Below are positions 1,918-48,464 of a DNA stretch of 64,000 nucleotides, in pieces; position 1 is the stretch's first letter; each line of letters opens with the position of its first letter. Made by a program: the position numbers and the translations under genes. The notes beneath the pieces are model-generated. The model saw only the letters and a program-made list of their open reading frames with translations. It was not told the DNA's origin and did not search any database. This DNA comes from a virus. Its lineage: Duplodnaviria > Heunggongvirae > Uroviricota > Caudoviricetes. The DNA lies in IMG/VR virus record IMGVR_UViG_2724679293_000007, positions 34,885 through 98,884 of that record. One strand, 5' to 3'.

Positions 1918-3833
1918 GCCGCTACCCCCGCTTTCTGGATTGCTACCAGCAGATCAGCCAGGTGGCGAGCAGCGCCATTAACCAGCTCTTCGTTTTCCTC
2001 AAAACGCCCGGCAGCCTGAAGGGCTGCAATCGCTTCCCGGACATTACCCCGGGCGTTACGGATCTCCGCCATGTCAGTGCTTTGCATATCCATCACGTTA
2101 TTGAGATATTCAATGGCTTTATTAGCCTCTGCATCTGCTTCGCTAACCGTTTCATCAGGCTGTGCCGGGGCAGGTTCTGGCTGAGTAATCTCACCGACTT
2201 CGGCCTGCAATGCATTGATCATGCTCTGCACCATTTTCTCGGTGCCAGCGCCCCCCGGAAACGCAATATTGGGGAAAGTTTTTTGAAACTGAGTTTTCAG
2301 CATTACGCGGAACTCGTCTGGTGAGCTGGTGGCCAGCTCCAGAGCTTTTTGTGCATATTTGCCAAACGGACCATTAGTAAGTGTCTTCGCCAGGAAGTCG
2401 AAAGAATCCTCGCGAGGCAATAACTTCAGGTCGTACTCACTCATTTGCTGATCAGAAAGCGGGGTATCGTAAGTAGCAATGCCGTAGCGTGCATATTCAT
2501 AATACGGGTCACCTTCATCAGGGCGCGGCAGAATTGCTTTGTTACCTTCAGGTATTGCGCCAGGGGCCGCCGGACGCATTTGCAGGGCATATCGATATGC
2601 ACCTACAGAGACTTCTGGTTCAGGCGAAGAGCTACCGGTATCCTCCGCTGGTTCAGGTTCGACGTTTTCCGGTTTATGTTCTTCTGGTTGGACCAGGTAT
2701 TCCGATACATTACCCGCTTTATAGGCTTTAAACAGCTTGCCGATCGCATCTGCCATGTCCACACCCTGTATGGATTTAGCCTTGATCATGTACACGCTGC
2801 CATCCGAATCGGTTAACTGGATATACCCTTCGCCGTCCTCAATGAATTGCTTCATTGATGCACCATTACTGAGCGTCACTTCCCCGTTCATATGCATACG
2901 ATTTTTGATACTGGCAAGGCGATCCATCATCGCGCGAGAGTGTCCACCAGTCATCCCTGCAGGAGCAATGGTATCGCGCCCACCAGTGCGATTGAGCTGA
3001 TCAATCTCCGTCTGCAAACGCTCATTCTCTTCATAAAGAGAATCCGCTTCCGATGCAACAGCGTTAATTTTCTGCTCCAGATCTGCCTTCTGCCCTTCTA
3101 CCGCTGCCACCTGATCCACGAGGTCGCTCATGGCATCCTCTTTCTGGTCACTGTCAGCCTGTAGTTGGGTTATTTCATCAACAAGGGCTTTTTTCTTCTT
3201 CTGCGCACGCTGGAATTTTGCCGAGTTTTTCTCTGCAAGGTTGGCAAGTTTCATGGTGACCTGCGCCAGCGTCATATCACGTCCACTCATCGGAGCAACT
3301 GTGTGAGTAACGTCTTTTTTATTCAGTAAGAACTGGAAAGCAACCAGCGTATCGCTATTGGTGATCCGGTTTTCCGCTGTCGGGCTATGAAACAGAATGC
3401 TGATAGTCTGACCATCACTGAGCGGAATAATGGCTGGCAAGACCGGCAGCCCGTTAACGTTACGTGCCCGGCCAATTTCAGCGCCGCCGATCGCGCGCGC
3501 GCCGCTCTGGGCCACATCCCCCGTTTTATCACTCCCCGCAGAGATTCCGGTACCATTCAGCTTCTGGTTCAATGCCCGGACAAATGCCTGCATGGTCCGG
3601 TGTAACTGCAAACGAGTAGAACTAATCGCCTCCAGTAAATCCGTAGCACACCAGTGGATCGGCGTGTCATAGAAGAACGTAGCCTCGATTTCCTCCAGGG
3701 TGTTGGATTCCGTCATCAGATAGCGGTCCTCACCGGCCATTAATGCGCGATATTCATCATCAGTCACTGGCGGGGGAAGCACGTCAAGCCCAGGCTTGAT
3801 CGTCACCCCTTTATTGATATTGAACTGTTCCAT
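1914..3833 (-). CDS. darA: DarA-like antirestriction internal head protein
   Basis: 639-aa ORF with central coiled-coil; position between the lysis genes and the large downstream ORF matches the P1 dar operon; upstream paralog fragment (Hdf) shares a motif (AEKNSAKFQRAQ vs ARKNSAKFQKSL). Confidence 0.65.
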   Translation of the reverse strand: MEQFNINKGVTIKPGLDVLPPPVTDDEYRALMAGEDRYLMTESNTLEEIEATFFYDTPIHWCATDLLEAISSTRLQLHRTMQAFVRALNQKLNGTGISAGSDKTGDVAQSGARAIGGAEIGRARNVNGLPVLPAIIPLSDGQTISILFHSPTAENRITNSDTLVAFQFLLNKKDVTHTVAPMSGRDMTLAQVTMKLANLAEKNSAKFQRAQKKKKALVDEITQLQADSDQKEDAMSDLVDQVAAVEGQKADLEQKINAVASEADSLYEENERLQTEIDQLNRTGGRDTIAPAGMTGGHSRAMMDRLASIKNRMHMNGEVTLSNGASMKQFIEDGEGYIQLTDSDGSVYMIKAKSIQGVDMADAIGKLFKAYKAGNVSEYLVQPEEHKPENVEPEPAEDTGSSSPEPEVSVGAYRYALQMRPAAPGAIPEGNKAILPRPDEGDPYYEYARYGIATYDTPLSDQQMSEYDLKLLPREDSFDFLAKTLTNGPFGKYAQKALELATSSPDEFRVMLKTQFQKTFPNIAFPGGAGTEKMVQSMINALQAEVGEITQPEPAPAQPDETVSEADAEANKAIEYLNNVMDMQSTDMAEIRNARGNVREAIAALQAAGRFEENEELVNGAARHLADLLVAIQKAGVAA

Positions 3834-3834
3834 G

Positions 3835-4446
3835 TTAATTTCCTGCTTTCAGTTGCTTAAGACGGCGTTTGAGTTCGCCATTTCTGGCCTTTTCGTTATT
3901 GAGTCGGCCTGTCTCCTTATCCAGCTTCGCCCGCAAATCAGTGATCTGCTGTTGATTGAAAGACACCGAATTCTGCGCGGACTTATAAGCGGCAACCACC
4001 TGAGCATTCCGCTGTTTTGCTTCTTGCAGGCGCTGAAAGTTGGATTTAACTGCCGGTTTCTTGTCTACCGGATTGGCTACACGCTTCGCTTTGGCGATCA
4101 GTGATTTCTGGAATTTTGCGGAGTTTTTGCGGGCCGCCTGTCCCATGACGGTACCAAGCGTCTTGATATCCGGCGACTGAGCGTTAGGAATAGCTTTTCC
4201 ATTCAGTTTCACAGACGATATATCGCCAGTATCGTTTACCTGTATGGCAAGGATTTGTCCGTCGTTAAGAACCAGCTTTGCGGTTTTAACTTTAACGCCA
4301 TCTTTCGTTGTTGCGCGGTTGCTGGAGTCAACCTCAATTACCGTAACCCCGGTTTTATTGATCGCCGCGATAAGGGATTTCAGCCCCTTTTCATTAACCT
4401 GGTCAAAATCGACCGTTGCATACTTATTTTTCGTCATCTGACACAT
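3835..4446 (-). CDS. hdf: Hdf-like protein (homolog of a DarA segment)
   Basis: 203-aa ORF; internal similarity to the darA product visible by eye; operon position. Confidence 0.6.
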   Translation of the reverse strand: MCQMTKNKYATVDFDQVNEKGLKSLIAAINKTGVTVIEVDSSNRATTKDGVKVKTAKLVLNDGQILAIQVNDTGDISSVKLNGKAIPNAQSPDIKTLGTVMGQAARKNSAKFQKSLIAKAKRVANPVDKKPAVKSNFQRLQEAKQRNAQVVAAYKSAQNSVSFNQQQITDLRAKLDKETGRLNNEKARNGELKRRLKQLKAGN

Positions 4447-7884: not shown

Positions 7885-8462
7885 TGACATTCAGAATGAG
7901 TGAACAATCACGGACCATAAAAATTTATAATCTACTGGCTGGAACCAATGAGTTTATTGGTGAAGGTGATGCATACATTCCACCTCATACAGGTCTGCCT
8001 GCAAACAGTACCGATATTGCCCCGCCAGATATTCCGGCTGGCTTCGTGGCCGTTTTCAACAGTGATGAGGCATCGTGGAATCTCGTTGAAGACCATCGGG
8101 GAAAAACCGTCTATGACGTGGCTTCCGGCGACGCGTTATTTATTTCTGAACTTGGCCCATTACCGGAAAATGTCACCTGGTTATCCCCGGAAGGGGAGTT
8201 TCAGAAGTGGAACGGCACAGCCTGGGTGAAAGATGCAGAAGCAGAAAAACTGTTCCGGATCCGGAAGGCGGAAGAAACAAAAAACAGCCTGATGCAGATG
8301 GCCAGTGAGCATATTGCGCCACTTCAGGATGCCGTAGATTTGGATATTGCGACGGAGGAAGAGGCATCGTTACTGACTGCATGGAAGACATATCGGGTAT
8401 TGTTGAATCGTGTTGATACAGCAGTAGCAGCGGATGTTGAGTGGCCAGTCGCCCCGCAATAA
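7884..8462 (+). CDS. tail fibre assembly chaperone U'
   Basis: 192-aa ORF with ATG overlapping the Sv' stop; position and size typical of the U/U' chaperone. Confidence 0.8.
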
Positions 8463-24044: not shown

Positions 24045-24170
24045 TTTTTTTAGCTTCATATGCTACATTAACTTGCTTGCGTGCTAATGCATTTTCGGTT
24101 TATCCTAAACAGGCATCTTAGTAAAACGGATGCCGGGATTGGAACCCCGGATAATGCAAAAGGCGACACA

Positions 24171-24192
24171 GACGCCAAAAGCGTCTTTTTTT
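24171..24192 (+). terminator. rho-independent terminator/attenuator in the immI leader
   Basis: gacgccaaaagcgtc followed by TTTTTTT. Confidence 0.45.
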
Positions 24193-24199
24193 GTGTCAT

Positions 24200-24340
24200 G
24201 CCATCGCACAGCCATACGTAGCACATAGCTCCGAGATCAATGGTAGTGCTGGCTGGGCTGCCGAAAGGCAGGCCGGTTCCCTTTTGCGCCGGTAGTTCCA
24301 ACCCAGTCAGTGCTACCGCCATTGAGATTGGAACCTCACG
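24200..24340 (+). ncRNA. immI leader with c4-type antisense repressor RNA candidate
   Basis: Non-coding leader upstream of icd with mutually complementary segments (gtagtgctggctggg ... cccagtcagtgctac), as expected for the c4 RNA and its target sites; exact ends not determinable here. Confidence 0.35.
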
Positions 24341-27774: not shown

Positions 27775-27897
27775 TACAATCGTTGCGGGTGCTTGAGGCT
27801 ATCTGCTTCAGGCATGACCCGAAAAGCAGATAGAAGAAAGCCCCAGATAACATTACGCGTCCTGCAAGACGCTTAACATTAATCTGAGGCCATATCT

Positions 27898-28104
27898 ATG
27901 CTTAGCATACGTAGATTAGCCTCTTACCGACCAAAAGGTCAAGGAGAAGCAGGCTATGAAGCAGCAAAAAGCGATGTTAATCGCTCTGATCGTCATCTGT
28001 TTAACCGTCATTGTGACGGCACTGGTAACGAGGAAAGACCTCTGCGAGGTACGAATCCGAACCGGCCAGACGGAGGTCACTGTCTTCACAGCCTACGAAT
28101 CTGA
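27898..28104 (+). CDS. mok-like overlapping frame of the hok locus
   Basis: 68-aa ORF overlapping hok in another frame, as in hok/mok/sok loci. Confidence 0.4.
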   Translation: MLSIRRLASYRPKGQGEAGYEAAKSDVNRSDRHLFNRHCDGTGNEERPLRGTNPNRPDGGHCLHSLRI

Positions 28105-33368: not shown

Positions 33369-35096
33369 TTACTCAGAGTCACCGGCATCAATCGTGTCGC
33401 CGCTTATGAAGTTAAGCCCGCCTTTTTTGGCCATTGTCAGCGTTACACGAGTGAAGTAATCAGCGCCGTTGCGTGGGTGCATATCGTTGATAGCCGAACC
33501 CCACAGTGTGGTACGGTTGACCAGCGCCGGAGTGGTCGGATGCTGGAACGGGATAGCCGGGACAGCATCACCAGTCACGAAGCCTGCTTTACCCGGATTT
33601 TCATCACGGACGTAGCACAGCACATCCATCGAGCTGAACTGAATGTTCTCTGTCGTTAAGTTCTTACAAATACCAGCAGGTACTTCGTACACTTTCACGT
33701 TACCGAACAGGGTACCGATGTAGTGAACATACGGAGTCTGGATATAGTCTTCGGCTGGCTGGAAGAAATCCTTCGGCAACTGTTTGAAGAAAGATGCTGC
33801 ATCAGCACCAGCAAACATCCCCATCGCACCAGAAGATTTAACGCGCTCAATAATGTCGCGATATACAGTCTGGAATTTGCCACGAATGATGGTTGCCCAT
33901 ACATCAAAGGACTGGTTAACCGGCAGAGCGATGTCAAAGGTGTCGGTCGCAAGAGTACGCCAGATCATGATGCGAAGACGCAGCATATCCTGTTCATGAG
34001 ACAGGTATTCCTTCAGGGTGCGGAACTGTAGGGAACCCAGGTCCAGACCAAATTCACGCTGTGCTTCATACGCCGCCTGTACCGTGTGCTCAGCCGCGAT
34101 AACGAACTGGCTTGGGAACAGGGTGTATTTCTTCATTTCGTGGTTGATCAGCGGGATCAGCTCAGGAGCGGCTTCAATATTGATTTCCGTCTCAATTGCG
34201 ATCTCAGTGCCTTTATCCGGCGCTTTGGAGAACGACAGGGCAATCTGACCAATGTTGTAGTTCAGAGAGCAGGTAACAGTGATTTGCTCACCAGCAGCAT
34301 TAGTAAACGAGTGAAGTAGGCTGCCGGAACCGTTATCAACAACAGACTTAATACGGTTAACGTAGATGTTAGTGCGACCTTTTCGGATTGGTACATTCTG
34401 GCCTTCGAAGTCTTCCATCTTGAAGGTTGCGGTTTTGCTGGTGCCATCGGAGCTTGCCACCAGCACATAGCGGCGGCGTAACTGGCTGTACACACCGACG
34501 GATTGCATGTCCAGAACATCACCAGCAGCATAAGAACCAAAAGAGGAACCTGCCACGTTAAAGACTTCATAGATGTCGGACTGGTCACGCGTAACCGGAA
34601 TGAAGGTACACGCATCAGCGGTAGCTGCCCCCAACTGAACAGGCAGGATCATCGCGAGGAATAAAGGCAGACGCATAACACCGTCAGAAACGCTCATCAT
34701 CTCTGCTGCGACGGATTCCAGCATCGCTTTATTAGTGGCATCCATGCTATTGCGGGTGGACTCAATCAGGCAGTTTTCCAGCGTCTGGTGGCAGGAGGCC
34801 AGAATTTCCGGACGCGGCATAGATTTATGTGCTGCGGCGTAGTCAGCCAGTGCACTTGCCCACGCGGTAGCAATTTGAGCGGTGGCATTATCAGAGATAC
34901 CCGCAAAAATTGGGTCTTTACGTGCAGCTTCAAGGATAGATGCGGCACGCGCGGCATCATCTTTGATGAATTGGTTATCAGTACCGAACTGTGCTGTACT
35001 TGCCCAGCCAAGAACGGCTTTAGAGCGTTTTGCGATATCTGCAATACGATTCTGGTATTCGCGTAAGTTACTCAAGTTACTCTTCCTTAAACACAA
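33369..35096 (-). CDS. major head protein (P1 gene 23 position); start codon uncertain (TTG in track)
   Basis: 575-aa ORF adjacent to parS as in P1; followed by a hairpin. Confidence 0.55.
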   Translation of the reverse strand: MCLRKSNLSNLREYQNRIADIAKRSKAVLGWASTAQFGTDNQFIKDDAARAASILEAARKDPIFAGISDNATAQIATAWASALADYAAAHKSMPRPEILASCHQTLENCLIESTRNSMDATNKAMLESVAAEMMSVSDGVMRLPLFLAMILPVQLGAATADACTFIPVTRDQSDIYEVFNVAGSSFGSYAAGDVLDMQSVGVYSQLRRRYVLVASSDGTSKTATFKMEDFEGQNVPIRKGRTNIYVNRIKSVVDNGSGSLLHSFTNAAGEQITVTCSLNYNIGQIALSFSKAPDKGTEIAIETEINIEAAPELIPLINHEMKKYTLFPSQFVIAAEHTVQAAYEAQREFGLDLGSLQFRTLKEYLSHEQDMLRLRIMIWRTLATDTFDIALPVNQSFDVWATIIRGKFQTVYRDIIERVKSSGAMGMFAGADAASFFKQLPKDFFQPAEDYIQTPYVHYIGTLFGNVKVYEVPAGICKNLTTENIQFSSMDVLCYVRDENPGKAGFVTGDAVPAIPFQHPTTPALVNRTTLWGSAINDMHPRNGADYFTRVTLTMAKKGGLNFISGDTIDAGDSE

Positions 35097-42551: not shown

Positions 42552-44566
42552 AAGAGCTGTGCTATGGATCTGTTTGCAGTGGAATTGAAGCCGCGAGTAT
42601 TGCCTGGGAACCGTTGGGTATGCGTCCGGCGTGGTTTGCTGAAATCGAGCCTTTTCCATCTGCCGTTCTTGCGCACCGCTGGCCCCATGTCGCCAACCTT
42701 GGCGACATGACAAAACTTGCCAAAAAAGTCCTGGCTGGGGAAATCGAATCCCCTGATGTGCTCGTCGGGGGAACACCTTGTCAGGCATTCAGTATCGCGG
42801 GATTAGGTGGTGGGCTTGATGATGAGCGTGGCGCGCTAACTTTAAAGTATGTGGAGCTTGCAAATGCAATTGACGACAAACGGGCTGAGTCATTTCTCAA
42901 ACCAGCAGTTATCGTCTGGGAAAATGTCCCAGGAGTCTTGTCATCGGCAGATAACGCCTTCGGATGTTTCCTTGCCGGATTGGCTGGAGAAGATGCGCCA
43001 TTCGAACCAGGTGATCGACCTGAATCAGGAAAAAGTAACGCGTTCTGGCGGTGGGATGTCAAAACCGGTTGCCATGCTCCAAAGTGGCCGCAGTGTGGTT
43101 GTATTTATGGACCGCAGCGAAAAGTGGCCTGGAGAATCCTTGATGCCCAATACTTCGGAGTGGCACAACGACGCCGACGCGTGTTTGTTGTCGCAAGTGC
43201 TCGAACAGACCTCGATCCCGCAACGGTACTTTTTGAGTTCGAAGGCGTGCGCCGGAATATTGCGCCGAGCAGAGGCGAGGGGAAGGAAACTACCAGATAT
43301 ACTTCAAACATCGCTATCAGAACTTGCGATGATACAAACATAATTGCCATGGCACATGGGCAAGGAGGGGCTGAGATAAAAACCGATAATTCGGCACCAA
43401 CTTTGACATGTAACCATGAAGCACCAATTGTATTGCTCGGCGACGGTAGAATGCGCCGTCTTACCCCTGTCGAATGTGAAAGGCTGCAAGGTTTTCCTGA
43501 TGGACATACATTGATCCCTACGGAAAAGCGTAAAAAAGTTTCTTCAGATGAACTGGCATACCTTCGCAAAAACTATCCTGATTTGAGCGAAGAAGAGGCC
43601 GCGATGCTTGCAGCTGACGGACCGCGTTACAAAGCGATCGGCAATAGTATGGCGATACCAGTAATGCGCTGGATTGGCGATCGGATTACCAAGGCTGCAT
43701 GTCGGCAGAATGAAGGGAATGAAACAAAAGAGCGAAAAGTTAAACCAGCGGCAGAATTCGAACGGTCCATATTCAAATGGGCTGGTGGAAAATTTGGTGT
43801 TCTGGAACAAATCTTTCGCTATTTGCCAGAAGGGAAGCGCCTGATTGAACCTTTTGTCGGTGGCGGAGCTGTCTTCATGAATGCCGGATACAAGGAAAAT
43901 CTGCTAAATGATGTGAATGCTGACCTGATTAACTTTTACAAGACTTTGCAACGTGAGGAACGTTCACTTATCACTCTGGCGCATCGGTTTTTCCAGGACT
44001 ACAACACACAGGAAGGATACCTGGCAGTACGGAATGCGTTTAACAAACAAGTCTATGATGATTTACATCGCGCAGCGGCGTTTTTGTTCCTGAACCGACA
44101 TTGTTTTAACGGATTGACGCGTTACAACCAGGCCGGTGAGTTCAATGTCGGTTATGGGAAGTATAAAACTCCGTATTTCCCATTGCAGGAGATGGAAGCC
44201 TTCCTTGGTGCGGAAGGGCGTTCTGAGTTTGTATGTGGTGATTTTGCTGCGGTGATTGAAGCTGCCGGAGAAGGAGATGTCATTTTTTGCGATCCGCCAT
44301 ATGAACCGCTTCCAAATACAGAGGGATTCACGAACTATTCCGGTCATGACTTTAAGTTTGAAGAGCAAAAACGCCTGGTGTCTCTGTTGACGGATGCTCA
44401 TCGCCGAGGTGCAAAGGTTCTCATTACTAACAGTGGCGCGCCAAACATCAGAGAGCTTTATCATGACAATGGCTTCAGAGTGGAACCTCTTTTTGCCAGA
44501 CGTTCTGTGTCTTGTAAGGGGGACACTCGAGGTGTTGCTCATGACGTTTTAGGTATATTGCTCTAA
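42548..44566 (+). CDS. dmt: bifunctional DNA methyltransferase: N-terminal C5-cytosine MTase motifs, C-terminal Dam-like N6-adenine MTase
   Basis: [13 protein letters not shown] (motif IV, PCQ), VIVWENVPG (ENV); later EPFVGGGAV and FCDPPYEP (DPPY). Confidence 0.9.
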
Positions 44567-44573
44567 TAAATTT
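44557..44573 (+). promoter_or_regulatory. C1 operator, perfect match to ATTGCTCTAATAAATTT, overlapping the dmt stop codon
   Basis: Seen directly; directly followed by its own partial reverse complement (TTTATTAG). Confidence 0.8.
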
Positions 44574-44589
44574 ATTAGTGTAATATCGC

Positions 44590-44773
44590 CTCAATGAATC
44601 GTGATTTATAGAGCGATTTAGCTGTTAGCCGCGACAGGCGCGGCGGTAAGCATGGCTGGGCCTAGTCCTCCCAGACAAACCACCGAGTTGCCAGGTTGAC
44701 CATGCGCCTAAGTGGCAACGCCGAAGTGCGTTACGAGCTTCCAGTTTGCCCATCTTCGGGTGGGCGTTTTTTT
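44590..44773 (+). ncRNA. candidate structured small RNA (first unit of the ban-operon leader)
   Basis: Four successive hairpins (gccgcg/cgcggc; ctggg/cccag; gttgcca/tggcaac; terminator) and no ORF >15 codons. Confidence 0.35.
44748..44773 (+). terminator. rho-independent terminator
   Basis: gcccatcttcgggtgggc followed by GTTTTTTT. Confidence 0.6.
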
Positions 44774-44929
44774 CAGGGTTTTCGTCATGGTTAGCGACTT
44801 TGCGGCGGTTTAGAAACTGACCATTAAAGTAAATGCAAACGATAATCTGATGATGGTAGCGGCCTAAGAAGCCAGACGCCACGGGGTATGAGTCGTCCCC
44901 CGTCAAAAAATCGACCACAGAGTGTCCCC

Positions 44930-45545
44930 GTCTGTGTATTAGGGAACGGGGAGGCACAACAGGTAAGGGCATTCTCCCTTATGGGGCTTGGCTTAAATGC
45001 ATCGAGTGCTCTTACCGTTGTGATGAAGTGCAGCTCTTTGAAGCAACCAGAAGATAAGCATCTGGCTTCACAACATAAACCGCAGGAACGACCAATAAAC
45101 GGTAGTCCGTATGGAGAACACCCCGTTGAGGAAGAGGCCTGGCCGGAACCGTAACCGGCACTACAACGTTGAGAACATTGGCGTAACGGGGTCATATCCC
45201 AATCTATGAATAAATGTCGCGAGGCAGCGTGACAACCAGTGTTCTCAACATTGTGGTGAATGCACAGGCTGATGTGCCGCAACTACAGTAGTGCGCGCTT
45301 TGCGGGGCTTGCTACAACCCTGTGTCGGAGTTCAGCACCGACCATCACAGTTTGATTCTCTGGCATGAGCATAACGCTGAAATAAGTCCAGTCTGGTGCG
45401 GTCTGATCACCCGCCGTTAGCTCCACGAAACGGAGCACGTAACAGGTAAGAGCATTCTCCTGTAACGGGTTCATATCCCAATCTACAGGTCCACCAAGAA
45501 TGCTCTTTCCGTTGCGGTGAATGCGGCTAAGCGCACGCGGGGAAA
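44930..45545 (+). repeat. three paralogous structured elements (~100 nt each) in a non-coding leader
   Basis: Units at ~44955-45040, ~45160-45280, ~45440-45540 share a 14-bp stem (ggtaagRgcattctcc or gttgagaacattgg with its complement), a loop module aacgggKtcatatcccaatcta (units 2 and 3) and a 3' motif gttgYGRtgaaKtgc. Confidence 0.5.
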
Positions 45546-45665
45546 TGGTTATATCTGTCCATTATTTCTCCTTGTTTCCCCGTCCACGGTAGATAACCAG
45601 CCAAAGGATACCGGGAGGCACCCGGCACCGCAGCTTTTTTATTCGTTAAATAATGGAGTGAGAGG

Positions 45666-45902
45666 ATGCAGAACAATCCGAACAAATGTCGAACGCTATG
45701 GGTGCGGTTATATATTTATGCCGTCCTCTGTTTGATTGTGTCACTGGTTCTGTATGTTTGGCTTTTGCCAAATATGATCTCATCTAACAGCACAATACTT
45801 GTATTGTTGGGAGTCCTTCTCGCGCTCATTTACCCGGCTTTCGCAGTAGTCTTTTTTCGTGAAAAAACCAGGAAATTAATTAATGAAAAAAACGTTGATT
45901 AG
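45666..45902 (+). CDS. small two-TM membrane protein preceding the SPFH lipoprotein
   Basis: 78 aa; GGAG-type RBS; overlaps the next gene start. Confidence 0.5.
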   Translation: MQNNPNKCRTLWVRLYIYAVLCLIVSLVLYVWLLPNMISSNSTILVLLGVLLALIYPAFAVVFFREKTRKLINEKNVD

Positions 45903-46710
45903 TGCAGCGATTATTTTGGGTTCTTTATGTCTGACCGGATGCGATCGGGTAGAGCCAGGTAACGTAGGGATCAAAGTAAATAAGCTGGGGGATGATAAAG
46001 GTATCGGTGAAGTAGTTGGCGTTGGTCGCTACTGGACAGGCTTGAATACTGAAGTTTATATCTTCCCGACCTTTAAGCAAATGAAGACATACGATGAGCC
46101 GTTCAGCTTCCAGATGAGCGACGGAACAACCATTGGTTACCACATCGGCGTAGCCTACAAGGTTGATCCAGCAAAAGTCACAACGGTATTTCAGACCTAT
46201 CGCAAAGGTGTAGATGATATTACTGATACCGATCTACGCCAGAAGGTTGCAGATGCTCTGAACCGGTTAGCCAGCAAAATGACCACCGACAAATTTATCG
46301 ACGGTGGCAAATCTGAATTGCTTGATGCAGCCCTTAAAGACATTCAGGAAGAAATGACGCCAATCGGCATTCAGGTGATGAGCCTCTCTTATGTAGGTAA
46401 GCCAGAATACCCGCCAACAGTTATTGACAGTATTAACGCCAAAGTCACGGCAAACCAAAAAACCCTGCAACGCGAGCAAGAGGTCAAACAACGTGAAGCA
46501 GAGGCCAACATGCTGCGCGCGGAAGCTGCCGGACAGGCTGATGCTATTCGCACAAAAGCCCAGGCCGAAGCTGATGCCATTCGTTTACGTGGTGAAGCTC
46601 TGCGCCAGAACCCCGGTGTTATGGAGTTGGAAGCGATCAACAAATGGAACGGTACATTACCGCAGTATATGACCAGTAATACCGCTGTTCCGTTTGTTCC
46701 GGTGAAATAA
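45883..46710 (+). CDS. SPFH (band-7/prohibitin-like) domain lipoprotein
   Basis: Lipobox LCLTGC; SPFH-like core; C-terminal Ala/Glu/Arg-rich coiled coil (REAEANMLRAEAAGQADAIRTKAQAEADAIRLRGEALRQ). Confidence 0.8.
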   Translation: MKKTLISAAIILGSLCLTGCDRVEPGNVGIKVNKLGDDKGIGEVVGVGRYWTGLNTEVYIFPTFKQMKTYDEPFSFQMSDGTTIGYHIGVAYKVDPAKVTTVFQTYRKGVDDITDTDLRQKVADALNRLASKMTTDKFIDGGKSELLDAALKDIQEEMTPIGIQVMSLSYVGKPEYPPTVIDSINAKVTANQKTLQREQEVKQREAEANMLRAEAAGQADAIRTKAQAEADAIRLRGEALRQNPGVMELEAINKWNGTLPQYMTSNTAVPFVPVK

Positions 46711-46737: not shown

Positions 46738-46813
46738 GGCCCTTTAGCTCAGTGGTTAGAGCTGGCGACTCATAATCGCACGGTCACCGGTTCAAGTCCG
46801 GTAGGGGCCACCA
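46738..46813 (+). tRNA. tRNA with anticodon CAU, ileX-like (tRNA-Ile2; Met not excluded)
   Basis: Cloverleaf folded by hand: acceptor GGCCCTT/AGGGGCC, D-arm GCTC-AGTGGTTA-GAGC, anticodon loop CTCATAA, T-arm ACCGG-TTCAAGT-CCGGT, encoded CCA; near-identical to E. coli ileX as recalled. Confidence 0.9.
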
Positions 46814-47093: not shown

Positions 47094-48464
47094 GTGTTAA
47101 TGTCTGCATCCCCTCTTGAATCCATGCCAAATTCCCTTAGTGCAGAACAAGCTGTGCTTGGTGGCTTAATGCTTGATAACTGCCGCTGGGATGAAGTTGC
47201 AGATCGTATAGTTGCTGATGATTTTTATACCAGTGCTCATCGTGAAATTTTCAGTGAGATGGAGAGGTTATTAAGTCATGGCAAACCGATTGATTTGATA
47301 ACACTTGCTGAAGCACTTGAACAGAACGGTAAATTAGAACGCGCCGGTGGTTTTGCGTACCTTGCGGAGATGTCAAAGAACACGCCCAGCGCGGCAAATA
47401 TTTGTGCTTATGCGGATATCGTTCGTGAACGCGCGGTTGTTCGTGAAATGATTTCCGTCGCAAATGAAATAGCCGAAGCTGGATATGTGCAGGATGGCAG
47501 GGGCAGCAATGAATTGCTGGATATGGCCGAGCGCCGCGTTTTTGAAATAGCTGAAAAACGACAAAAGAGCGGTAGTGGTCCAAAAGATATCGCCAGCATT
47601 CTCGATGCAACGGTATCTCGCATAGAAGAGTTGTTTCAGCGACCGCATGATGGTGTAACGGGGCTTGATACCGGATTTACCGATCTCAATAAGAAGACGG
47701 CAGGACTTCAGCCGTCCGATCTCATTATTGTCGCCGCCCGCCCATCGATGGGGAAGACCACGTTTGCGATGAATCTCGTCGAAAATGCCGCAGTTCGTAA
47801 CGATAAGCCCGTATTGGTTTTTAGCCTTGAGATGCCGAGCCACCAGCTGATGATGCGCTCACTGGCTTCTCTTGCACGCGTTGATCAGACTCGTATTAGA
47901 ACGGGGCAACTTAACGATGATGATTGGGCGCGGGTTTCTGGCGCAATGGGTATTCTGTTGGACAAGCAGAATATTTTTATTGATGACTCAAGCGCCCTGA
48001 CGCCGACAGAGCTACGTTCCCGCGCTCGTCGTGTTTATAAAGAAAATGGTGGTTTGAGCATGATTATGATCGACTACCTGCAACTTATGCGCGTCCCCGA
48101 GCTGCAAGATAACCGAACGCTGGAAATTGCCGAGATTTCTCGCTCACTGAAGGCGTTGGCGAAGGAATTACAAGTACCGGTGGTGGCATTGTCACAACTT
48201 AATCGATCGCTTGAACAGCGTGCGGACAAACGACCGGTAAATTCAGATTTACGTGAATCAGGAGCAATTGAGCAGGACGCAGACCTGATTATGTTTCTGT
48301 ATCGCGACGAAGTTTATCACCCGGATAGCGAAATGAAGGGCATTGCCGAGGTAATTATCGGAAAGCAACGAAATGGCCCAATTGGCACGGTGAGATTGGC
48401 TTTTAACGGCCAATACTCACGGTTTGATAACTATGCCGGTGCTGACTGGCAAGAGGATTATTAA
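47094..48464 (+). CDS. ban: DnaB-family replicative helicase (Ban)
   Basis: 456 aa; DnaB N-terminal domain and RecA-like core with Walker A (PSMGKTTF). Confidence 0.95.
   Translation: MLMSASPLESMPNSLSAEQAVLGGLMLDNCRWDEVADRIVADDFYTSAHREIFSEMERLLSHGKPIDLITLAEALEQNGKLERAGGFAYLAEMSKNTPSAANICAYADIVRERAVVREMISVANEIAEAGYVQDGRGSNELLDMAERRVFEIAEKRQKSGSGPKDIASILDATVSRIEELFQRPHDGVTGLDTGFTDLNKKTAGLQPSDLIIVAARPSMGKTTFAMNLVENAAVRNDKPVLVFSLEMPSHQLMMRSLASLARVDQTRIRTGQLNDDDWARVSGAMGILLDKQNIFIDDSSALTPTELRSRARRVYKENGGLSMIMIDYLQLMRVPELQDNRTLEIAEISRSLKALAKELQVPVVALSQLNRSLEQRADKRPVNSDLRESGAIEQDADLIMFLYRDEVYHPDSEMKGIAEVIIGKQRNGPIGTVRLAFNGQYSRFDNYAGADWQEDY

Follow-up and report, generated by a model that had tools for sequence, protein, structure and literature searches.

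What does a folded RNA do between a repressor-controlled promoter and the distal gene that this promoter is annotated to serve? The question is posed by the dmt-ban region of the stretch of viral DNA analyzed here, a window of 64,000 nucleotides (nt) covering positions 34,885 to 98,884 of the IMG/VR virus record IMGVR_UViG_2724679293_000007 (Caudoviricetes). The window represents a P1/P7-like phage-plasmid and is 98% identical to P1; the 1.1 kb around the site are 98% identical to P1 and to several P1-like phage-plasmids, and ~94% identical to P7. An initial annotation, made from the letters of the window, had described a perfect C1 repressor operator embedded in the dmt stop codon and a hairpin-rich, non-coding unit behind it that ends in a terminator, and had proposed that a C1-repressed promoter there makes a small structured RNA, starts the operon that continues to ban, or both. 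We find that this unit contains a pseudoknotted RNA domain of ~115 nt (44620-44739, + strand), which is homologous to the sequence directly upstream of the small RNA (sRNA) DicF in the Qin prophage; that the domain helps transcription to reach ban is a tentative reading, weighed below against its alternatives.

A covarying pseudoknotted domain in the ban leader

The domain, which we refer to as the 'dicF-upstream' domain, was delineated by a covariance model (R1), by pair counts and by its homology to Qin, and is built from five nested helices and one pseudoknot, with conserved loops. On the + strand, a closing stem (44620-44627/44731-44739) encloses the hairpin P2 (44629-44633/44639-44643), the helix P2b (44644-44647/44682-44685), which itself surrounds a variable hairpin, P4 (44656-44660/44670-44674), and the hairpin P5 (44686-44693/44713-44720); in the pseudoknot helix, P3, a strand enclosed by P2b pairs with the loop of P5 (44650-44655/44700-44705). 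Model R1 matches 44614-44733 with a score of 92.7 bits (E 1e-22), and this is its sole copy in the window. The 'four consecutive stable hairpins' of the initial annotation are accordingly real as hairpins, but they are helices of a single pseudoknotted domain rather than four independent elements.

To evaluate the fold by comparison, copies were taken from one genome per species (Escherichia, Shigella, Citrobacter, Trabulsiella and Erwinia tracheiphila), from IMG/VR viral contigs, which hold more than 119 matches to the search pattern, and from sequenced phages (P7, Salmonella phage F1055, cdtI, 2H10 and Tritos), giving 69-70 distinct sequences; the collecting pattern fixed 22 bases, which reduces the variation visible in P2 and in the 3' strand of P3. 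Within the structural alignment of 70 of these sequences (A3), standard pairs fill 96.5% of the pair cells, as compared with 31-56% after the 3' partners have been shifted by one to three columns, and changes on both sides of a pair are found at 13 of 36 pairs (59 cells). On each of five measures, all 500 column shuffles fell short of the observed value, and a MAFFT alignment of the domain gave similar numbers. Helix P3, which was not part of the model used to make the alignment, is 99% paired and includes one pair that appears as U-A, U-G and C-G.

Comparison of individual copies reveals the same pattern on a finer scale. Between P1 and P7, a U-to-C change in P2b is matched by an A-to-G change in its partner, a C-to-U change in P3 is matched by G-to-A, and the P4 hairpin has been swapped for a different hairpin; the remaining differences across 44557-44780 are few, and consist of single bases after P5 and in the T-run of the terminator. 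Between P1 and Qin, inspection by eye identifies compensatory changes in several helices, two of which are interleaved, and compensatory substitutions also extend across the Escherichia, Citrobacter, Trabulsiella, Erwinia and Salmonella phage copies. The loops GGUUGACCAU and CGGUAAG are invariant or nearly so among the 70 sequences. It is this covariation, rather than predicted stability, that supports the fold, because stability alone is unexceptional: the minimum free energy (MFE) of the region lies at a z-score of only -1.38 relative to shuffled sequences. The region is not the unconserved spacer that the initial annotation had allowed for as an outcome in related genomes.

No protein appears to be encoded here, as had been proposed from the lack of an open reading frame (ORF). 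Homologous copies measure 121, 122, 123, 124, 126 and 127 nt, lengths that are not multiples of three apart, so that no reading frame is conserved in the unit; protein coding was rejected on this ground for both strands, and a minus-strand ORF of 115 amino acids (aa) at 44625-44972 was judged spurious. Ahead of the domain, the MFE fold places a small 5' hairpin, AAUCG...CGAUU (44597-44618, + strand), which is identical in P1 and P7, occurs only in P1/P7-type copies and is absent from the lambdoid ones. This hairpin holds a five-codon mini-ORF (ATG AAT CGT GAT TTA TAG, 44604-44621), likewise identical in P1 and P7 and without an obvious Shine-Dalgarno sequence.

The dicF locus and the terminator that follows the domain

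A sensitive DNA search returned matches in 4268 of 5426 complete E. coli genomes, and in nearly all of the chromosomal matches sampled the matching part corresponds to window positions 44629-44723, at ~77% identity. The K-12 match falls in the Qin prophage, between ydfC and dicB (locus L002, 1486-1607), and ends ~25 nt before DicF as located by Rfam. The GenBank record of P1 carries a misc_feature, 'dicF-like region', ~100 bp past the operator and promoters. The Rfam model of DicF itself (RF00039), which scores 76.7 bits on Qin, has no match in 44450-45450, either at its gathering score or at E<=10. It is the structured domain upstream of DicF, rather than DicF itself, that the P1 sequence resembles. 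A scan of 44557-44773 with other Rfam families, a check that had been suggested beforehand, likewise found none at gathering score, and at E<=10 returned chance-level matches to nuoG, RyhB (at the terminator) and RefB11. The earlier statement that the identity of the RNA was unknown therefore holds insofar as no Rfam family matches it, and fails insofar as the P1 record already marks a dicF-like stretch at this place.

The P1-type and Qin loci have a homologous ~115-nt domain (~77% identity) with the same fold, and in both an intrinsic terminator after the domain must be passed if distal genes are to be transcribed. They differ in what surrounds the domain: the 3' module of P1 has no RF00039 match, a different terminator and almost no single-stranded seed, and its domain lies ~25 nt from a repressor-controlled promoter of its own, whereas that of Qin follows three small genes. 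In Qin, DicF arises in two steps, termination and then a cut by RNase E just behind the domain (PMC9438474, PMC5069750).

In the window, the terminator predicted by the initial annotation is found at 44747-44773 (+ strand), as a stem-loop (GCCCATC-TTCG-GGTGGGC, 44747-44766) with a G+C-rich stem of 7-8 bp and a UUCG loop, followed by G and T7; it is the sole strong + strand terminator between the ban promoters and ban. Every one of the 135 copies of the domain examined, that of the window included, is followed by an intrinsic terminator (132 called by script, and three, with long hairpins and then a T-run, read by eye), which ends 55-136 nt past P5. The 3' module that bears the terminator is far less constant, and occurs in at least eight unrelated forms, among them DicF, a short DicF variant, a cdtI type and the P1 type. 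The spacer from domain to terminator is 8 to more than 30 nt long, and its sequence shows no relationship among copies; in the P1/P7 and cdtI-type copies, the terminator hairpin starts only 8-14 nt after the closing stem, with hardly any room in between for an sRNA body or seed region.

In lambdoid prophages, the domain is located in the leaders of early-left (PL-type) operons. In phage cdtI it lies ~280 nt downstream of a near-consensus PL-like promoter, which itself follows cI and its terminator, and the inducible phage Tritos carries, in this order, cI-ydfABC-[domain]-DicF-dicB-ydfD-recE-xis-int. Since Tritos lacks N and the DicF terminator stands ahead of them, every distal early-left gene of this phage depends on passing that terminator. 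The first ORFs downstream of the domain in cdtI, of which the translations were read, are not N-like. The domain and its terminator together appear to be a mobile leader module that is common to P1-type leaders and to the early-left leaders of N-less lambdoid phages.

Already known, and annotated in the P1 and P7 records, are the operator, the promoters, their control of ban and the presence of a dicF-like stretch. What is new is a sharper view of the 'dicF-like region' as a separately conserved, covariation-supported pseudoknotted domain that is not a DicF homolog and belongs to no Rfam family. As a distinct, pseudoknotted and widespread RNA family, the domain was not found described in Rfam 15 or in the searchable literature, and two papers on the P1vir transcriptome make no mention of this RNA. 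The domain adjoins the heavily studied dicF/dicB locus and is matched in a majority of the complete E. coli genomes that were searched, and its function, if exerted through read-through, could explain how distal early genes are expressed across a DicF-type terminator.

From the C1 operator to ban: possible roles of the leader

The perfect 17-bp C1 consensus, ATTGCTCTAATAAATTT, lies at 44557-44573 (+ strand) with no mismatch, is orthologous to positions 3658-3674 of the P1 genome (NC_005856, locus L001, our reference for alignment and for transferred coordinates) and corresponds to Oban-a, formerly Op72a. The stop codon of dmt (TAA, 44564-44566) falls within it, as follows from the end of the ORF. 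The initial annotation had noticed a partial reverse complement right behind the 17-mer. A second, inverted site with two mismatches, Oban-b (formerly Op72b; 44568-44584, - strand), overlaps Oban-a by 6 bp and is annotated in P1 and P7; the two together form the bivalent operator Op72ab, or Oban-ab (44557-44584). Eight matches to the C1 operator with up to three mismatches occur in the window, as compared with 0.26 expected, and none of 100 shuffles reached eight.

According to the P1 GenBank record, this 'divalent C1-controlled operator Obanab; corresponds to former Op72ab; controls expression of ban', and two sigma-70 promoters, P1ban and P2ban, overlap it; the P7 record carries the same two operator features. 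Transfer of the promoters from NC_005856 through a 97-98% identical alignment places P2ban at 44541-44546 (-35, ATGACG) and 44567-44572 (-10, TAAATT) and P1ban at 44558-44563 (-35, TTGCTC) and 44581-44586 (-10, TAATAT), both on the + strand, with transcription expected to start near 44593. A simple consensus promoter scan did not call either of them, because their -35 hexamers are weak. Judged by this alignment, 44557-44586 would be the C1-repressed operator and promoter of the ban operon, as annotated in P1, and C1, with or without Bof, would bind and repress at Oban-ab, going by the GenBank annotation and older literature; both the operator and the C1-repressed promoter of an operon running to ban, as put forward in the initial annotation, agree with the curated P1 and P7 entries. 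Relative to the P1 operator, sequence, position at the end of dmt and bivalent geometry are the same, the flanks are 97-98% identical, and there is no essential difference at the site; the surroundings differ, in that the window has a P7-type dmt of 672 aa, lacks trnA and trnT, and carries an SPFH/Band-7 gene in place of tciABC.

Taken together with the position of the domain, this arrangement suggests how the leader might work. Once C1 repression is lifted, transcription would begin near 44593, and the nascent RNA would fold first the small hairpin, then the ~115-nt pseudoknotted domain and, 8-14 nt on, the strong intrinsic terminator; in Qin, the terminator part of the same domain-terminator cassette is the DicF sRNA. 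We suppose that the domain would act in cis, either on the transcribing polymerase or on the adjacent terminator, so that a fraction of transcripts passes the terminator and the ~1.1 kb without + strand coding sequence that follow, to reach the SPFH gene, trnI and ban, with ban, by the P1 annotation, as the distal gene under Oban control. Transcripts that stop at the terminator would yield a structured RNA of ~180 nt, comparable to the DicF precursor. We therefore tentatively favor, at a probability well short of even, a cis-acting leader for read-through (by antitermination or by protection of a long untranslated transcript) that allows ban to be reached, because the folded leader always stands just before the first terminator of an operon with needed distal genes, and does so in N-less phages. 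A bolder form of this idea, which we regard as doubtful, is that the domain constitutes a new class of cis RNA antiterminator unrelated to put and, more widely still, that the ban leader also delivers a transfer-messenger RNA (tmRNA)-like tag RNA, described below, with an effect on host ribosome rescue. If true, it would account for the expression of dicB-recE-xis-int in Qin-type prophages and of ban in P1 across a DicF-type terminator, and would define a class of antiterminators that P1-like phages share with the N-less lambdoid prophages of most E. coli genomes.

The put RNAs promote read-through of terminators in cis, in a manner that depends on the zinc-binding domain of the RNA polymerase beta' subunit. 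Like the put RNAs of HK022 and HK639, the domain is a structured RNA in the early-operon leader of N-less lambdoid phages, upstream of terminators (PMC9378689), a position met in cdtI, 2H10, Tritos and Qin and, in P1, directly after the ban promoters. In its published structure, put is a V formed by two stem-loops over ~73 nt (PMC9378689), without a pseudoknot, and the 'putL-like antiterminator RNA' feature annotated in HK639 measures 126 nt; moreover, HK022 has both putL and putR, whereas the domain occurs once per genome. As with lambda nut sites and the boxA leaders of rrn operons, lambdoid copies are preceded by a boxA-like UGCUCU(U/C)U and the downstream operon is largely untranslated RNA, but here there is neither a boxB hairpin nor an N gene.

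Several observations weigh against a read-through role. Membership among the put RNAs was examined and rejected: blastn finds no similarity beyond chance, R1 finds nothing in HK022 or HK639, and the words that HK022 putL and the HK639 feature share with the domain are short (GCGCGGCGG, ACCATGCG). The P1-type copy lacks the boxA-like motif found ahead of the lambdoid copies (UGCUCUUU...). In the tRNA-leader region farther downstream, this motif turns up again as one side of long stems, and it may not be a boxA at all; boxA was accordingly set aside as suggestive in lambdoid copies, not conserved in P1 and perhaps part of a recurring long stem. Only a single strong terminator lies in the path from the ban promoters to ban, and simple leakiness past it could be enough. 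The thermodynamic stability of the region is, as noted above, unremarkable, and the bases fixed by the collecting pattern limit the variation observable in P2 and P3.

The main rival, given the documented route by which DicF is made, is that the unit is an sRNA cassette, in which the domain serves biogenesis or stability (by positioning RNase E cleavage or by capping the 3' end of the upstream fragment), the 3' piece is an Hfq-binding effector that acts in trans, and read-through to ban is incidental. Seed regions of sRNAs are usually variable, and the combination of variable 3' modules with a conserved 5' domain is what such a cassette would be expected to show; in Qin, moreover, RNase E cuts close behind the domain to make the 5' end of DicF, whose 3' end is at the terminator (PMC9438474, PMC5069750). 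We nonetheless consider this explanation rather unlikely for the P1-type unit, in which the 8-14 nt between closing stem and terminator, as in cdtI-type copies, leave almost no seed, and the Rfam DicF model does not match the 3' module; ~115 nt with a conserved pseudoknot is also far more elaborate than known RNase E determinants. If instead the ~180-nt terminated RNA were itself the product, binding or titrating a host or phage protein independently of ban expression, then the strong conservation of the loops, the compact pseudoknotted fold and release at a terminator in every copy would all be in keeping. This idea is less probable again: the lambdoid domain is part of a long operon transcript, not a separate gene under a promoter of its own, no partner protein is common to P1 and the lambdoid phages, and the invariance of the loop bases is due in part to the search pattern.

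A structured domain directly before a terminator is also the classic layout of a transcriptional riboswitch, which raises the possibility of an attenuator that senses a ligand or factor and so sets the efficiency of the adjacent terminator. We think this improbable, as there is no conserved alternative pairing of the domain with the terminator, the spacer between the two varies in length and is unrelated in sequence among copies, no Rfam riboswitch model matches, and a phage early operon suggests no obvious metabolite. Competition between terminator and antiterminator helices was examined directly across 23 terminator variants, and the duplex energies of the domain with the 5' arm of the terminator proved no different from those of shuffles; this lack of excess complementarity indicates that an action on the polymerase would fit better than a swap of helices. 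Least credible of all is that the hairpins are inert spacer, or a recombination scar where dmt gives way to the tRNA region, the terminator being the only functional part. The modest MFE z-score and the nature of the region as a mosaic of modules borrowed from lambdoid phages are consistent with such a view, but covariation disfavors it: compensatory changes separate P1 from P7 and run through the copies from the other genera, and the core has matches in most of the E. coli genomes searched.

A tmRNA-like module and the neighboring genes

Immediately after the terminator, in the same transcription unit, lies a second candidate RNA (44777-44970, + strand), a tmRNA-like module that consists of a conserved 5' block, a GCA resume-type codon, a tag, a hairpin and two pseudoknots. 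This segment is homologous, at 70-80% identity, to non-coding DNA that always adjoins tRNA genes, in 288 phage records from unrelated groups, including P1-like phages, the late-operon leaders of lambdoid phages after gene Q, Ackermannviridae (Vi01 and Serratia phage 3M), the N4-like phage Bp4, Akiravirus and others; the homologs include P1 (L001) 3877-4070, L003 2996-3192, L215-L218 and many IMG/VR loci.

The tag of E. coli tmRNA is ANDENYALAA. In the window, the module encodes a ten-codon tag, ANDNLMMVAA, followed by a stop (44835-44867, + strand), which opens at a GCA after AUAAAU; elsewhere the tag reads ANDDLMMVAA, ANDDVVLMAA, ANDEQFLAVA or ANDNTFLAVA. The frame amounts to exactly ten codons and a stop in nearly all of 76 distinct sequences, with many synonymous variants; behind the frame come a hairpin with covarying pairs and two loop-to-downstream pairings (the pseudoknots). 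The module follows the tmRNA pattern of a GCA resume codon after an A/U-rich stretch, an end of hydrophobic-A-A and stop, and a helix and pseudoknots next. Rfam tmRNA models match below threshold, with 15.7-25 bits as compared with gathering scores of 47-84; ARAGORN calls no tmRNA in the window, P1, P7, L003, Vi01, Bp4, Akira or 3M, and no consistent tRNA-like domain (acceptor stem with G3-U70, T-arm and CCA end) was found with the module. Candidates for a tRNA-like partner were sought, and T-arm-like motifs occur near the module in Vi01, Akira, P1 and L003, in no consistent arrangement. In a census from 2014, mycobacteriophages and Bacillus phage G are the only phages listed with ssrA (PMC4131195). 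The module described here, present in P1-like, lambdoid, Vi01-like, N4-like and other phages, is perhaps a greater surprise than the leader.

Two unannotated units lie upstream of the module in other phages. In Vi01 (L215 933-1078), a tRNA-like unit of ~146 nt runs from UGCGGUG through a T-arm, GUCGGUUCGAAUCCGAC, to CACCGCA, and in Bp4 (L216 1010-1081) ARAGORN calls a tRNA-Ala(CGC); both are candidate partners of the tag RNA.

Downstream of the module, the window departs from its closest relatives. It is collinear with NC_005856, at 97-99% identity, over 43454-44970 (L001 2555-4070) and over 45005-45632 (L001 4563-5190), and in between (window 44970-45005 versus L001 4070-4563) the ~490-650 bp that carry tRNA-Asn and tRNA-Thr in P1, P7 and the closest relatives are missing. 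By ARAGORN and by alignment to P1, trnA and trnT are absent from the window; tRNA genes, which P1 has downstream as trnA and trnT, were also considered as part of the non-coding unit, and ARAGORN finds none in 44557-45005. The junction (44970-45005) falls at copies of a recurring motif, CACAACAGGTAAGGG ... CTTACCGTTGTG, which forms long stems on either side of tRNA-like units in P1, lambdoid late leaders and phage Akira; these stems are possibly processing sites. Just beyond the junction, the segment GTGCTCTTACCGTTGTG (45014-45030) resembles boxA (lambda CGCTCTTA, rrn TGCTCTTT) and nearly equals the GTGCTCTTTCCGTTGTGG that precedes the domain in lambdoid prophages; P1 differs at this position.

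For ~1.1 kb after the leader terminator there is no + strand coding sequence, the stretch being occupied by the tmRNA-like RNA and, on the opposite strand, by plp and upl, and the first + strand coding gene past the leader starts ~1.3 kb from the transcription start. The + strand from the leader to ban carries an SPFH/Band-7 ORF of 275 aa (45883-46710), which stands in place of P1 tciA, tciB and tciC, and a tRNA gene with anticodon CAT (trnI, 46738-46813), called by ARAGORN and Rfam; ban itself (47094-48464, + strand) has the Pfam domains DnaB and DnaB_C of a DnaB-like replicative helicase and is 99% identical to P1 ban. On the other side of the operator, the dmt ORF (672 aa, ending at 44566) contains C5 and N6 DNA-methyltransferase domains and has the P7-type form, with the same length as P7 Dam; its central part (43269-43454) differs from that of P1, with ~185 bp as compared with 431 bp. 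Elsewhere in the window, Rfam matches at gathering score fall at 24113-24323, 27787-27961 and 8227-8425, and comprise isrK-like and C4 antisense RNA (immI region), sok antitoxin RNA and IS009.

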